DNA of 64,000 bases from Escherichia coli (GTDB lineage Bacteria > Pseudomonadota > Gammaproteobacteria > Enterobacterales > Enterobacteriaceae): assembly GCF_003334765.1 (NCBI RefSeq), contig NZ_QOWT01000012.1; one strand, given 5' to 3'. The notes below the pieces were generated by a model that was not told the origin of the DNA, searched no databases, and saw only the letters and a program-made list of their open reading frames with translations. Each line of letters starts with the position of its first letter. The first letter of the stretch is position 1. The translations under genes were made by a program, and so were the position numbers. Below, piece after piece: positions 1,513 through 35,762 of the stretch.

Positions 1513-1701
1513 CAGGGACATCCTTTTATCATCGGGAATACGAAAGAAAAGGGAGAATAAACGCCTTACTTATAGAACAGTGAAGAATGCCACAATTTTA
1601 CGCTTTGAAAATGATGACACTATCACAGTTGGCGCATTCATTAACGATAGGGTATAAGTAAAACAATAAGTTAACACCGCTCACAGAGACGAGGTGGAGA
1701 A

Positions 1702-4925: not shown

Positions 4926-5099
4926 ATCTTATCCGACCTTTCAGGCCAGATCCTCGGAAGGGGAAGTTGATTAATTTGTGTGAAATACAAATTGAAAGCC
5001 GATTCGAAGAAAGTGAACCGGCATTTTCAGTGGCTAGTATAGCGTAAGGTACTGTAAAGTCGCCAGAGGGTTAAAATTCAGACTGCTGATAAATGCAAT

Positions 5100-5205
5100 A
5101 CTGCCTGATGCGCTATGCCAATCAGGCCTACGCAGTCCTTGCAATATATTGAATTTGGACGATTTTGTAGGCCTGGTAAGGCGTTTACGCCGCATCTGGC
5201 ATAAA
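5100..5205. repeat. REP (repetitive extragenic palindromic) elements
   Basis: GCCTGATGCG...ATCAGGCCTAC and GTAGGCCTGG...CGCCGCATC palindromic units typical of E. coli REP. Confidence 0.7.
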
Positions 5206-14127: not shown

Positions 14128-14240
14128 CTATGCCTGATGCCGATTCGTAGGCCGGATAAGGCGCTCGCGCCGCATCCGGCGGTGGTGCGCTGAAGCCTGA
14201 TGCGACGCTTACCGCGTCTTATCATGCCTACTGGGAGCAC
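14128..14240. repeat. REP elements
   Basis: GCCTGATGCCGATTCGTAGGCCGGATAAGGCGCTCGCGCCGCATCCGGC and GCCTGATGCGACGCTTACCGCGTCTTATCATGCCTAC units. Confidence 0.7.
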
Positions 14241-20384: not shown

Positions 20385-20495
20385 TGCGTAGGCCGGATAA
20401 GGCGTTCACGCCGCATCCGGCATTTGAGCATAGTGCCTGATGCGACGCTTGATGCGTCTTATCAGGCCTACAGGTGCACCGCATCCGGCAAACCA
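20385..20495. repeat. REP elements
   Basis: Paired palindromic units TGCGTAGGCCGGATAAGGCGTTCACGCCGCATCCGGCA / GCCTGATGCGACGCTTGATGCGTCTTATCAGGCCTAC. Confidence 0.75.
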
Positions 20496-29527: not shown

Positions 29528-30475
29528 TCAGGACAGGGTGGCGGGGATGATGATTTGTTGCGGTTCGCTGCGCCCGGTTACCTGTGCGATCAATTGGCAG
29601 GCCGCCTGGCGTCCAGCTTCGGCGTAACCAGGATCTACGGTGACGATCTCCGGATGAAGGAATTTCATTAACGGCGTATTACCGACGCTCGCCAGTTGCA
29701 AGGTGTCGATGCGTTGCTCTTGCAGGTATTTACTTGCGCCAAGTGCCAGCGTGTCGGTTGCGCACAGTAAGGCGGTAGTTTCAGGCGTAATCACTTTTGC
29801 TACGTTCTCATAGCCTTGCTTCATAGCAAGCCCTGGCAGAGCGGCAACGGGATGCAGTTTATGCGCTTTGCAGAACGCCAGGTAGGCTTCGTGACGTCGC
29901 TTACCGGTCGTCACGTCACTGTGCGGCACGCCGAGATAACTGATATTACGATGCCCCTGGTCATAGAGCCGTTGCATCAGGATCTTGATTGCCCCTTCGT
30001 CGTCATAACAGACCGAAGCAAAGCCTTTTGCGTCACGCGCCAGCAGAACCAGCGATGACTGCCAGTGGGCTAACATTTCTTCTGTTATGCCGGTAAAACC
30101 GAACAGCACTACGCCGTCGATATTACGCCGTTTTAGGATCCCCAAATGTTCGGCAACTAATTGCGGGGAAAACTGACTTTCCATCATGATTGGGTCGTAA
30201 CCTTGTTCATAGAACGCTGGCAGCATGGTTTGAACGGCGAGATTTTCTGACAACGAATCCAGGCGGGTAACAATGATGGCGACCACTTTATCGCTTTGCC
30301 CACGCATAGCGCGCGCAGAGCGGGAAGGGGAAAATCCATGCTGATTCATCACTGCTTCCACGCGCTCGCGCGTGCGCTGGCTCACGCCGCTTTCGTTATT
30401 CAGCACCCGGGAAACCGTAGATTTCCCCACGCCGCTTAAGCGCGCGATGTCTTTGATGGTCAGCCGATTTTGCAT
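29528..30475 (-). CDS. treR: Trehalose operon repressor (LacI family)
   Basis: 315-aa ORF with N-terminal HTH (TIKDIARLSGVGKSTVSRVLN). Confidence 0.92.
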   Translation of the reverse strand: MQNRLTIKDIARLSGVGKSTVSRVLNNESGVSQRTRERVEAVMNQHGFSPSRSARAMRGQSDKVVAIIVTRLDSLSENLAVQTMLPAFYEQGYDPIMMESQFSPQLVAEHLGILKRRNIDGVVLFGFTGITEEMLAHWQSSLVLLARDAKGFASVCYDDEGAIKILMQRLYDQGHRNISYLGVPHSDVTTGKRRHEAYLAFCKAHKLHPVAALPGLAMKQGYENVAKVITPETTALLCATDTLALGASKYLQEQRIDTLQLASVGNTPLMKFLHPEIVTVDPGYAEAGRQAACQLIAQVTGRSEPQQIIIPATLS

Positions 30476-30659
30476 CCTGTTGTCCCGTAACGTGTTGTTT
30501 AATTATTTGAGGCTAACTTTACCCGTGCATTCAGCAATGGGTAAAGTCTGGTTTATCGTTGGTTTAGTTGCCAGCAGGTATTATATCGCCATAAATGCTA
30601 CGAATATTATTGGATTCTCCTTATTATTTGCGGCGCTTTTTTCACTTACCGGAGGTTAT

Positions 30660-30713
30660 ATGGAACCTGATCCCACGCCTCTCCCTCGACGGAGATTAAA
30701 ACTTTTTCGGTAA
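30660..30713 (+). CDS. mgtL: mgtA leader peptide MgtL (17 aa, proline-rich)
   Basis: ATG at 30660 encodes [21 protein letters not shown] within the long mgtA 5' leader. Confidence 0.75.
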
Positions 30714-30853
30714 GCCCGTCTTTTCACGGCGTTACCGGATGCGTAAGGCCGTGACGTTTTAACGTCCCTGCTCAGCTTTATTACCTTCAGGTAAGGCTTC
30801 GCCACGCCTGAAGACATTTCTGTACTGTTTCAGACAGTGCGGAGGGACTCCTT

Positions 30854-33550
30854 ATGTTTAAAGAAATTTTTACCCGGCTCATTCGCCATTTACCTTCCCG
30901 TCTGGTTCATCGTGATCCATTGCCTGGCGCGCAGCAGACAGTGAATACGGTGGTCCCGCCGTCCTTAAGTGCGCATTGCCTGAAAATGGCGGTGATGCCC
31001 GAAGAAGAATTGTGGAAAACGTTCGACACCCATCCGGAAGGGTTAAATCAGGCGGAAGTGGAATCTGCCCGCGAACAACATGGTGAAAATAAATTACCCG
31101 CACAACAACCGTCGCCGTGGTGGGTACATTTATGGGTCTGCTATCGCAACCCCTTTAATATTTTACTCACCATTCTCGGCGCTATTTCTTACGCCACGGA
31201 AGATTTATTTGCCGCGGGCGTTATCGCGCTAATGGTCGCCATTTCTACGTTGCTGAACTTTATTCAGGAAGCACGTTCCACTAAAGCGGCAGATGCCCTG
31301 AAAGCGATGGTCAGCAATACTGCGACGGTGCTGCGCGTAATTAACGACAAAGGCGAAAATGGCTGGCTGGAGATCCCGATCGACCAGCTGGTGCCCGGCG
31401 ATATTATAAAACTGGCGGCGGGGGATATGATCCCGGCAGATTTACGTATCTTGCAGGCGCGGGATCTGTTCGTCGCTCAGGCGTCGTTAACCGGTGAGTC
31501 TCTGCCCGTAGAAAAAGCAGCTACCACTCGCCAGCCGGAGCACAGCAATCCGCTGGAGTGCGACACCCTGTGTTTTATGGGCACCACCGTGGTGAGCGGC
31601 ACGGCACAAGCAATGGTGATTGCTACAGGTGCCAATACCTGGTTTGGTCAACTGGCGGGGCGTGTTAGTGAGCAGGAAAGCGAGCCGAATGCCTTTCAGC
31701 AAGGGATCAGCCGCGTCAGTATGCTGCTGATTCGCTTTATGCTGGTGATGGCTCCGGTGGTGCTGTTAATCAATGGTTACACCAAAGGCGACTGGTGGGA
31801 AGCGGCACTGTTTGCGCTTTCGGTCGCGGTAGGCTTAACGCCGGAAATGTTGCCGATGATTGTTACCTCGACGCTGGCGCGCGGCGCAGTAAAGCTGTCG
31901 AAACAGAAAGTGATCGTCAAACATCTGGATGCTATTCAGAACTTTGGCGCAATGGATATTCTGTGCACTGATAAAACTGGCACCCTGACACAGGACAAAA
32001 TTGTGCTGGAGAATCATACCGATATCTCCGGTAAAACCAGCGAACGCGTGCTGCATAGCGCGTGGTTGAACAGTCATTATCAGACCGGACTTAAAAACCT
32101 GCTCGATACAGCGGTGCTCGAAGGTACGGATGAAGAGTCAGCGCGCTCGCTGGCCAGTCGTTGGCAAAAAATCGATGAGATTCCGTTTGATTTCGAGCGT
32201 CGCCGGATGTCGGTGGTAGTGGCAGAAAATACCGAGCACCATCAGCTGGTTTGCAAAGGTGCATTGCAGGAAATCCTCAATGTGTGTTCGCAGGTGCGTC
32301 ACAATGGCGAGATTGTGCCGCTCGATGACATCATGCTGCGTAAGATTAAGCGGGTTACTGATACGCTGAATCGTCAGGGGCTGCGCGTGGTTGCGGTGGC
32401 GACGAAATACCTGCCAGCGCGTGAAGGAGATTACCAGCGGGCGGATGAATCCGACCTGATCCTCGAAGGATATATTGCTTTCCTTGATCCGCCAAAAGAG
32501 ACAACTGCTCCGGCACTGAAGGCATTAAAAGCGAGTGGAATTACCGTAAAAATCCTTACTGGCGACAGTGAGTTAGTTGCAGCGAAAGTGTGCCATGAAG
32601 TGGGGCTGGACGCGGGAGAGGTGGTCATTGGTAGTGATATTGAAACGCTATCTGACGACGAACTGGCAAATCTCGCACAGCGCACCACGCTGTTTGCTCG
32701 TCTGACGCCGATGCATAAAGAACGCATTGTGACCTTACTGAAGCGCGAAGGGCATGTGGTTGGCTTTATGGGCGATGGTATTAATGATGCGCCCGCCTTA
32801 CGCGCTGCGGATATCGGCATTTCTGTGGACGGCGCGGTAGATATTGCCCGTGAAGCGGCTGATATCATCCTGCTGGAAAAAAGCCTGATGGTGCTGGAAG
32901 AGGGGGTTATTGAGGGACGTCGCACTTTCGCCAACATGCTGAAATACATCAAAATGACGGCGAGCTCTAACTTCGGTAATGTGTTCAGCGTGCTGGTGGC
33001 GAGTGCTTTCTTGCCCTTCCTGCCGATGTTGCCGTTACACTTGCTTATTCAGAACCTGCTGTACGATGTGTCACAGGTGGCGATCCCGTTTGATAACGTC
33101 GACGACGAGCAAATTCAAAAGCCGCAGCGTTGGAATCCGGCGGATCTGGGGCGCTTTATGATCTTCTTCGGACCGATCAGCTCGATCTTCGATATTCTGA
33201 CGTTTTGCCTGATGTGGTGGGTATTCCATGCCAACACGCCGGAAACGCAAACGCTGTTCCAGTCGGGATGGTTTGTGGTGGGCTTACTGTCGCAAACGCT
33301 GATTGTGCATATGATCCGTACCCGCCGTGTGCCGTTTATTCAGAGCTGTGCATCGTGGCCGTTAATGATCATGACCGTGATCGTGATGATTGTCGGGATC
33401 GCATTGCCGTTTTCACCGCTGGCCAGTTATCTGCAGCTGCAGGCGCTGCCGTTAAGCTATTTCCCGTGGCTGGTTGCGATTCTGGCAGGGTATATGACGT
33501 TAACCCAGTTGGTGAAAGGGTTCTATAGCCGTCGTTACGGCTGGCAGTAA
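30854..33550 (+). CDS. mgtA: Magnesium-transporting P-type ATPase
   Basis: 898-aa ORF with the P-type ATPase phosphorylation motif DKTGTLT and GDGINDAPAL. Confidence 0.95.
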   Translation: MFKEIFTRLIRHLPSRLVHRDPLPGAQQTVNTVVPPSLSAHCLKMAVMPEEELWKTFDTHPEGLNQAEVESAREQHGENKLPAQQPSPWWVHLWVCYRNPFNILLTILGAISYATEDLFAAGVIALMVAISTLLNFIQEARSTKAADALKAMVSNTATVLRVINDKGENGWLEIPIDQLVPGDIIKLAAGDMIPADLRILQARDLFVAQASLTGESLPVEKAATTRQPEHSNPLECDTLCFMGTTVVSGTAQAMVIATGANTWFGQLAGRVSEQESEPNAFQQGISRVSMLLIRFMLVMAPVVLLINGYTKGDWWEAALFALSVAVGLTPEMLPMIVTSTLARGAVKLSKQKVIVKHLDAIQNFGAMDILCTDKTGTLTQDKIVLENHTDISGKTSERVLHSAWLNSHYQTGLKNLLDTAVLEGTDEESARSLASRWQKIDEIPFDFERRRMSVVVAENTEHHQLVCKGALQEILNVCSQVRHNGEIVPLDDIMLRKIKRVTDTLNRQGLRVVAVATKYLPAREGDYQRADESDLILEGYIAFLDPPKETTAPALKALKASGITVKILTGDSELVAAKVCHEVGLDAGEVVIGSDIETLSDDELANLAQRTTLFARLTPMHKERIVTLLKREGHVVGFMGDGINDAPALRAADIGISVDGAVDIAREAADIILLEKSLMVLEEGVIEGRRTFANMLKYIKMTASSNFGNVFSVLVASAFLPFLPMLPLHLLIQNLLYDVSQVAIPFDNVDDEQIQKPQRWNPADLGRFMIFFGPISSIFDILTFCLMWWVFHANTPETQTLFQSGWFVVGLLSQTLIVHMIRTRRVPFIQSCASWPLMIMTVIVMIVGIALPFSPLASYLQLQALPLSYFPWLVAILAGYMTLTQLVKGFYSRRYGWQ

Positions 33551-35627: not shown

Positions 35628-35762
35628 TTATCTCCTGACGCCTGGGCAAAAAAAAGCCCCTCGATTGAGGGGCTGGGAATGGGTGATCAACGGGAAGAAA
35701 AACGGCAGGCCAGCGTCTTTTTTCAGACGCGGTAAGACAAAATGTCGAACACACTGAACCAT
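35628..35762 (-). CDS. pyrL: pyrBI operon leader peptide (attenuator)
   Basis: 44-codon ORF MVQCVRHFVLPRLKKDAGLPFFFPLITHSQPLNRGAFFCPGVRR ending 3 bp before the pyrB start; contains the attenuator hairpin/U-tract region. Confidence 0.75.
   Translation of the reverse strand: MVQCVRHFVLPRLKKDAGLPFFFPLITHSQPLNRGAFFCPGVRR

Follow-up and report, generated by a model that had tools for sequence, protein, structure and literature searches.

The mgtL-mgtA regulatory leader in an Escherichia coli genome: an ordinary copy of a known system with a minority allele in the arm shared by the alternative stems

The window, that is, the whole analysed stretch of 64,000 nucleotides of E. coli DNA, shows 100% identity with E. 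coli strain H3 over 24 kb. The gene neighbourhood is canonical: nrdDG, treCBR, mgtL-mgtA and ridA-pyrIB-pyrL. The mgtA gene (30854-33550, plus strand) encodes a Mg2+-importing P-type ATPase of 898 amino acids that matches the equivalog family TIGR01524 with 1607 bits against a cutoff of 611. The gene treR (29528-30475, minus strand; TIGR02405, 589 bits) is transcribed divergently from mgtL-mgtA, and it is intact, with an ATG start and 315 amino acids. Within its first 149 amino acids TreR differs from the K-12 protein by L34R and V113I, the former in the N-terminal DNA-binding region. In the window-identical strains E2865 and H3, RefSeq flags treR as a pseudogene ("incomplete; missing N-terminus", 951 nt). 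This flag is probably an annotation artefact.

Several other features of the window may be mentioned. A second leader-peptide attenuator, pyrL upstream of pyrBI, lies at approximately 35628-35762 (minus strand), as annotated in H3. According to the same annotation, two genes are disrupted: one encoding a hypothetical protein at approximately 38666-40293 (plus strand), which is frameshifted and has an internal stop, and yjgN at approximately 42679-43875 (plus strand), which has an internal stop. A tRNA-Leu gene in the leuX position (54507-54588, plus strand) is directly followed by the gene of a site-specific integrase (approximately 54682-56592, plus strand). This pair indicates the boundary of a genomic island integrated at the tRNA. 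The Rfam model Ysr276 matches positions 48340-48534 (plus strand) with 175 bits against the gathering score of 100. The match is antisense within pepA and may be due to the conserved coding sequence of this gene rather than to a genuine small RNA. The other Rfam matches above the gathering score are ES239, STnc450, ES036 and four copies of the REP-element-derived naRNA4. The coordinates listed for these matches are 1513-1635 (plus strand), 4987-5044 and 5124-5166 (minus strand), and 14150-14228, 20391-20468, 47335-47410 and 47431-47506 (plus strand).

The region upstream of mgtA contains a short open reading frame, mgtL, at 30660 (ATG) to 30713 (TAA) on the plus strand, 140 nt upstream of the mgtA gene. 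Translation yields 17 codons and a stop: ATG GAA CCT GAT CCC ACG CCT CTC CCT CGA CGG AGA TTA AAA CTT TTT CGG TAA. Codons 3, 5, 7 and 9 encode proline and codons 2 and 4 encode acidic residues, so that residues 2-5 form the motif EPDP. The DNA of this reading frame is identical to loci annotated as mgtL (WP_001387276.1) in RefSeq genomes of E. coli. Two further mechanical reading frames overlap the leader, one of 34 amino acids at 30595-30699 (plus strand) and an antisense one of 53 amino acids at 30656-30817. Both were dismissed, having neither a Shine-Dalgarno box nor a conservation argument.

A full-length match to the Rfam family RF01056, the mgtA Mg2+ sensor (Mg sensor, or Magnesium-II), covers positions 30645-30760 on the plus strand. 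It spans model positions 1-115 of 115 and scores 121.9 bits with E = 4.9e-24, well above the gathering score of 40. The mgtA reading frame starts 94 nt past the end of this match, so that the matched element lies in the 5' leader of mgtA. The treR-mgtA intergenic region is present in all 5426 complete E. coli genomes, with coverage of at least 80% in 5424 of them, and the RefSeq annotation at these matches reads "mgtL: mgtA regulatory leader peptide MgtL", followed by mgtA. In the two remaining genomes less than 80% of the query is covered; in one of these, GCU-H1, the match covers 28% and there is no annotated feature there. Three matches reside on plasmids. The low-coverage and plasmid matches may represent disrupted or relocated leaders.

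The region from 30591 to 30853, together with its upstream promoter, is thus almost certainly the native regulatory leader of mgtL-mgtA in E. coli. It is an already known system in an ordinary copy; the counter-evidence considered below concerns details of the mechanism, and none of it speaks against the identity of the locus. The initial annotation had placed a 17-codon proline-rich reading frame in the 5' leader of mgtA, and this is borne out by the translation, the Rfam match, the RefSeq annotation and the conservation.

The promoter has the features of PhoP-activated genes. A candidate PhoP box GGTTTATCGTTGGTTTA (30550-30566, plus strand), read directly from the sequence, is a direct repeat (T/G)GTTTA-N5-(T/G)GTTTA, whose core is identical to that of the PhoP box TGGTTTATCGTTGGTTTAA of Salmonella mgtA (PMC3335776, Table 1). 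Strict matches to the box were found 80-118 nt upstream of the mgtL start codon in 27 of 44 enterobacterial loci. The predicted -10 hexamer TATTAT (30579-30584, plus strand) lies 12 nt downstream of the box. In Salmonella, the mgtA promoter belongs to Architecture I, in which the box is followed by 12 nt, the -10 hexamer, 7 nt and the transcription start, and the leader is 264 nt long (PMC3335776). The promoter considered here has the same layout, a single putative PhoP-binding site in the direct orientation 12 nt upstream of the -10 hexamer. Given this geometry and the Salmonella distance of 7 nt between the -10 hexamer and the start, transcription is predicted to begin at approximately 30590-30591. 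The 5' leader of mgtA would then occupy approximately 30591-30853 (plus strand), about 263 nt. The interval given for the leader by the initial annotation, 30600-30853, contains the reading frame and ends just before the mgtA start codon at 30854. However, its left boundary falls about 10 nt short of the predicted transcription start. A generic sigma-70 scan of 30400-30950 produced no pair of -35 and -10 boxes. This is expected for an activator-dependent promoter, in which the activator site replaces the -35 box, and nothing positive is learnt from it.

The leader is highly structured. Its minimum free energy is -85.4 kcal/mol (z = -4.07), and none of 200 shuffled sequences folds as well. According to the Rfam alignment and the fold, stem-loop A (30645-30714, plus strand) is a three-way junction that encloses the entire mgtL reading frame. 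The outer helix is formed by CUUACCGGAGG (30645-30655) and UUUUUCGGUAAG (30704-30714), and the inner hairpins by 30661-30663/30673-30675 and 30680-30684/30691-30695. The left arm contains the Shine-Dalgarno box GGAGG of mgtL (30651-30655), which is thus covered, in agreement with the published description of the mgtA leader, in which the three-way junction sequesters the Shine-Dalgarno box of the upstream reading frame (PMC11552253). The right arm contains the last two sense codons of mgtL and its UAA stop codon. Stem-loop B (30724-30754, plus strand), placed by the Rfam alignment, is the OFF-state hairpin, with -17.2 kcal/mol and z = -3.67 when folded alone. Finally, the right arm of A (UCGGUAA) may pair with the left arm of B (UUACCGG), forming the alternative ON-state stem-loop C (30706-30739, plus strand), which excludes both A and B. 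The fold of 30700-30745 has -16.0 kcal/mol and z = -2.51. The published model assigns A with B to high Mg2+ and C to low Mg2+ (PMC11552253). The predicted folds thus comprise two mutually exclusive conformations, A with B or C alone: all three helices can form, and all three are conserved in the 42 distinct leaders described below.

Downstream of stem-loop B, the distal part of the leader (30764-30848, plus strand) forms a separate domain; the fold of 30760-30853 has -37.6 kcal/mol and z = -5.23. Its closing helix GUCCCU (30764-30769)/AGGGAC (30843-30848) covers the Shine-Dalgarno box of mgtA, and two hairpins are enclosed (30785-30813 and 30820-30842). In the RNAalifold consensus of 29 species this domain has 24 base pairs. 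Compensatory changes occur in 11 of them, and there is hardly any variation in the closing helix. The covariation and the covering of the Shine-Dalgarno box imply that, besides attenuation, there may be a layer of translational control of mgtA. We found no explicit discussion of this pairing in the literature examined.

The comparative data come from a search with a degenerate DNA pattern encoding M-[DE]-P-[DE]-P-x-P-x-P-R in one genome per species. It returned 120 loci, which were filtered by the length of the reading frame (12-18 amino acids, 46 loci) and by the presence of mgtA downstream. In 40 of the 46 loci, from other Enterobacteriaceae, an MgtA homologue starts 190-315 nt downstream; two others are chance matches and were rejected (L054 and L074), and the rest are cut off. 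Many pattern matches came from high-GC genomes, Nocardia and Streptomyces among them; these chance hits lie within long reading frames and were removed by the length and mgtA filters. The alignment (A1) comprises 42 distinct leaders.

All parts of the switch are conserved in this alignment. The OFF structure, A together with B, is paired in 95.3% of cases, compared to 35-50% in slid controls. It contains six pairs with compensatory double changes, five of them in stem B, and none of 500 shuffles reaches the observed score. Taken separately, the outer helix of stem A is paired in 97.2% of cells and stem B in 96.3%, the latter with compensatory double changes in 5 of 11 pairs. Stem C is paired in 89.4% of cases, versus 13-47% when the partner is slid. 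Its core is invariant, as expected for an arm that is obliged to pair with two different partners. In the divergent E. coli strain E69 (L067) a 10-nt deletion and substitutions near the window positions 30630-30640 affect the region just upstream of stem A, and A, B and C are unchanged.

Conservation of the N-terminal half of MgtL is partly circular, as most of it was fixed by the search pattern. Length and frame, and the features of codons 6 and 8, lay outside this selection. The peptide has 17, 16, 15 or 14 amino acids in the 42 distinct leaders, and the start codon lies 48, 45 or 42 nt from the CGGUAA arm, a spacing divisible by three throughout. The stop codon of mgtL is the UAA of this arm, that is, of the right arm of stem A, in all leaders but one (41/42). 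Codon 6 is either GCN or ACN, and all four third bases occur in the ACN codons; codon 8 is CTC, CAT or GAC. The C-terminal residues vary freely, with the exception of [FS]R at the very end, whose codons belong to the arm of stem A. Hence the C-terminal half appears to be constrained as RNA and by the reading frame rather than as a peptide. On the other hand, the in-frame length variants, the register of the stop codon and the free third base of codon 6 are the signature of coding constraint, and on these comparative grounds mgtL is to be regarded as a translated reading frame.

These observations are fully compatible with the published model of the Mg2+/mgtL switch (PMC11552253, PMC12360218, PMC11282234, bioRxiv 10.1101/2021.02.02.429294). 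Its application to this locus would be as follows. Transcription would begin at the PhoP-activated promoter, from approximately 30590, and produce a leader of about 263 nt capable of two mutually exclusive folds. In the OFF fold, stem A and stem-loop B would coexist; the ON fold would instead contain stem C, formed by the right arm of A and the left arm of B. The choice between them would be coupled to the fate of the ribosome on mgtL. When Mg2+, and prolyl-tRNA, are sufficient, mgtL would be read to the UAA within the right arm of A. The arm is then occupied, B forms, and transcription would stop before mgtA. At low Mg2+, or when proline codons are poorly decoded, the ribosome would stall or drop off within M-E-P-D-P-T, leaving the right arm free to form stem C, and the polymerase would proceed into mgtA. 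The conserved distal domain would additionally pair the Shine-Dalgarno box of mgtA. To this scheme the present analysis contributes the sequence identity, the promoter layout, the assignment of the gene downstream, all structural elements with their conservation, and the signs of coding in the upstream reading frame. The response to Mg2+ and proline, the destabilisation of the ribosome at EPDP and the way in which transcription terminates are taken from the literature or inferred.

The allele of MgtL found here (MEPDPT..., with EPDP) is the peptide used in the published E. coli experiments (bioRxiv 10.1101/2021.02.02.429294; PMC11282234). In these studies E. coli MgtL was translated, and its translation aborted within MEPDPT at EPDP in a Mg2+-sensitive manner dependent on bL31 and EttA; this EPDP-dependent abortion raised transcription of mgtA. 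Mg2+ and proline responsiveness of elongation into mgtA is supported for Salmonella and E. coli K-12 (PMC11552253, PMC11282234). The sensing motif of E. coli is EPDP with its acidic and proline residues, and the evidence points to Mg2+-sensitive destabilisation of the ribosome at this motif, and not to proline supply alone.

Two other readings of mgtL have to be considered. The first is that it is a chance short reading frame in an intergenic region, devoid of leader function. A frame of 17 codons by itself is not beyond chance, such frames being common, and several other mechanical reading frames overlap the region. However, we take mgtL as real because identical DNA is annotated as mgtL, RF01056 matches here, the reading frame is conserved with mgtA downstream, and the indels and the stop codon keep the frame and the register. 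The comparative, Rfam and annotation data already refute the chance reading, and we give it practically no credence. The other reading is that of a pure Mg2+ riboswitch, in which the RNA itself would bind Mg2+ and switch between A+B and C with no need for translation of mgtL, the reading frame being incidental to the RNA structure. Rfam indeed files the RF01056 element as a riboswitch aptamer. Moreover, Mg2+-dependent folding of the RNA alone modulated Rho termination in vitro, as summarised in PMC11552253, which cites Hollands 2012 for this result. The poor conservation of the C-terminal half of MgtL is also what would be expected from constraint at the RNA level. However, RNA structure alone leaves unexplained why all indels between the start codon and the CGGUAA arm are multiples of three, why the stop codon coincides with the UAA of the arm in 41 of 42 leaders, and why the third base of codon 6 is free. 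In addition, the E. coli experiments cited above demonstrated translation of MgtL, its EPDP-dependent abortion and the effects on mgtA (PMC11282234; bioRxiv 10.1101/2021.02.02.429294). We therefore consider a switch independent of mgtL translation unlikely. The two mechanisms are not mutually exclusive, and whether Mg2+ is sensed directly by the RNA, via translation of mgtL, or both, is stated to be unresolved in PMC11552253. The translation-coupled switch remains the reading adopted here.

When the leader is aligned with the characterised leader of K-12, the peptide is identical and two substitutions are seen in the transcribed part: A for G at approximately 30594, near the 5' end, and T for C at 30707. 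A few more substitutions occur upstream of the promoter. The initial annotation had called the leader intact. This stands, as every part is whole: the upstream reading frame with its Shine-Dalgarno box, the three stems A, B and C, the hairpins of the distal domain, and mgtA with its 898 codons; however, the leader does not coincide with that of K-12 base for base, and the minority synonymous substitution T30707 falls in the arm common to stems A and C. It changes the Phe16 codon from TTC of K-12 to TTT (plus strand, alignment A2), converting a G-C pair of stem A into G.U and a C-G pair of stem C into U.G. The computed penalty (ddG) is +2.9 kcal/mol in stem A, the same in stem C, and zero in B. 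Among the 42 leaders, U in this position is unique to the window, and the other 41 have C. The 60-nt allele of the window occurs in 485 of 5425 complete E. coli genomes (about 9%), and the K-12 allele in 4846 (89%).

Since the substitution weakens A and C equally, the ribosome-free balance between A+B and C is unchanged, and T30707 is most likely neutral. A shift of the set-point might nevertheless be imagined for the state in which the ribosome is stalled, A is unavailable, and C competes with B. In the allele comparison, C with U (-15.7 kcal/mol) is slightly weaker than B (-16.9 kcal/mol), and C of K-12 has -18.6 kcal/mol; the weakened C would thus bias this lineage to the OFF state and to lower induction of mgtA. 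The presence of C at 30707 in all other species-level leaders and in 89% of E. coli genomes agrees with this. Against it, the equal weakening of A leaves the ribosome-free equilibrium the same, G.U and U.G remain pairs, and the order of co-transcriptional folding probably outweighs a difference of 2.9 kcal/mol. Moreover, the occurrence of the allele in 485 complete genomes from varied hosts suggests that it is tolerated or neutral. Such a bias to the OFF state is therefore improbable, and the prediction that, in this lineage, the allele carried by about 9% of E. coli moves the Mg2+ set-point or alters the induction kinetics of mgtA should be treated as a long shot, slightly less probable still. 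If true, T30707 would represent natural variation that tunes a leader-peptide attenuator, in a position otherwise invariant in about 40 enterobacterial species. In any case, it is a cheap natural variant for probing the influence of shared-arm strength on the switch.

The termination step deserves separate consideration. A scan for intrinsic terminators of the region 30400-30950 yielded no terminator-like site, so the type of terminator used in E. coli is not readable from the sequence. In a scan for rut-like composition, the ratio of C to G was 1.3-1.8 over 30620-30739 and about 1.6 over 30750-30819; being modestly above 1, these values are at most weakly suggestive and are not used as evidence here. 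The literature gives different answers. The Term-seq and EttA studies of E. coli treat the mgtA site as Rho-dependent (PMC7815308, PMC11282234). However, when Rho R66S was used in ChIP-qPCR, E. coli mgtA had a termination score of 1.0 (PMC5499598), and hence a role of Rho in E. coli is not established. According to a 2025 review, the Rho mechanism of Salmonella "may not be conserved in E. coli" (PMC12360218).

This bears on the statement of the initial annotation that the locus has the known Mg2+/proline-responsive attenuation arrangement. Every defining feature open to sequence analysis was found, and the peptide is the published E. coli allele. However, the proline response and Rho-dependent termination were established in Salmonella, and the E. 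coli evidence favours EPDP destabilisation. Thus the phrase "known attenuation arrangement" should not be taken to imply Rho dependence of the Salmonella kind, as the termination mechanism of E. coli is still debated. As a discovery the locus carries little weight: the mgtL-mgtA leader is a textbook case of translation of an upstream reading frame and alternative RNA folds controlling a Mg2+ importer. The present analysis confirms the initial assignment and documents the conservation of each structural part of the switch, including the distal domain that sequesters the Shine-Dalgarno box.

The closest known system is mgtL-mgtA of E. coli K-12 (b4702/b4242), which has the same peptide, stems A, B and C, distal domain, PhoP box and flanking genes treR and mgtA. 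The mgtA leader of Salmonella enterica has the same PhoP box core, the same 12 nt to the -10 hexamer, and a leader of about 264 nt, compared to 263 nt here. It also has 17 codons in mgtL with proline in positions 3, 5, 7 and 9, a stop codon in the right arm of stem A, the same alternation of A, B and C, and the same context GCGGAGGGA of the mgtA Shine-Dalgarno box. The peptide itself is different, being MDPEPTPLPRWR[IV]FLFR in S. enterica subsp. diarizonae and arizonae, and the E. coli experiment with Rho R66S did not reproduce the Rho dependence demonstrated in Salmonella (PMC5499598; PMC12360218). The corL-corA leaders of E. coli and Salmonella, by their published description, also combine a three-way junction containing an upstream reading frame, alternative stems, and control by Mg2+ via translation of this frame (PMC11552253). 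However, this leader lies outside the window, the regulated gene is corA, and corL has a UUG start codon and a single proline. Finally, the alternation of A, B and C corresponds to the 1:2, 2:3 and 3:4 pairings of classical attenuators. As in trpL, hisL and pyrL, translation of a leader peptide selects between mutually exclusive hairpins. However, the latter terminate intrinsically, at a hairpin with a U-run behind it, and no such terminator is detectable in the mgtA leader. In addition, the signal read by mgtL is the stability of the ribosome and the decoding of proline codons at low Mg2+, and not cognate amino acid starvation alone.
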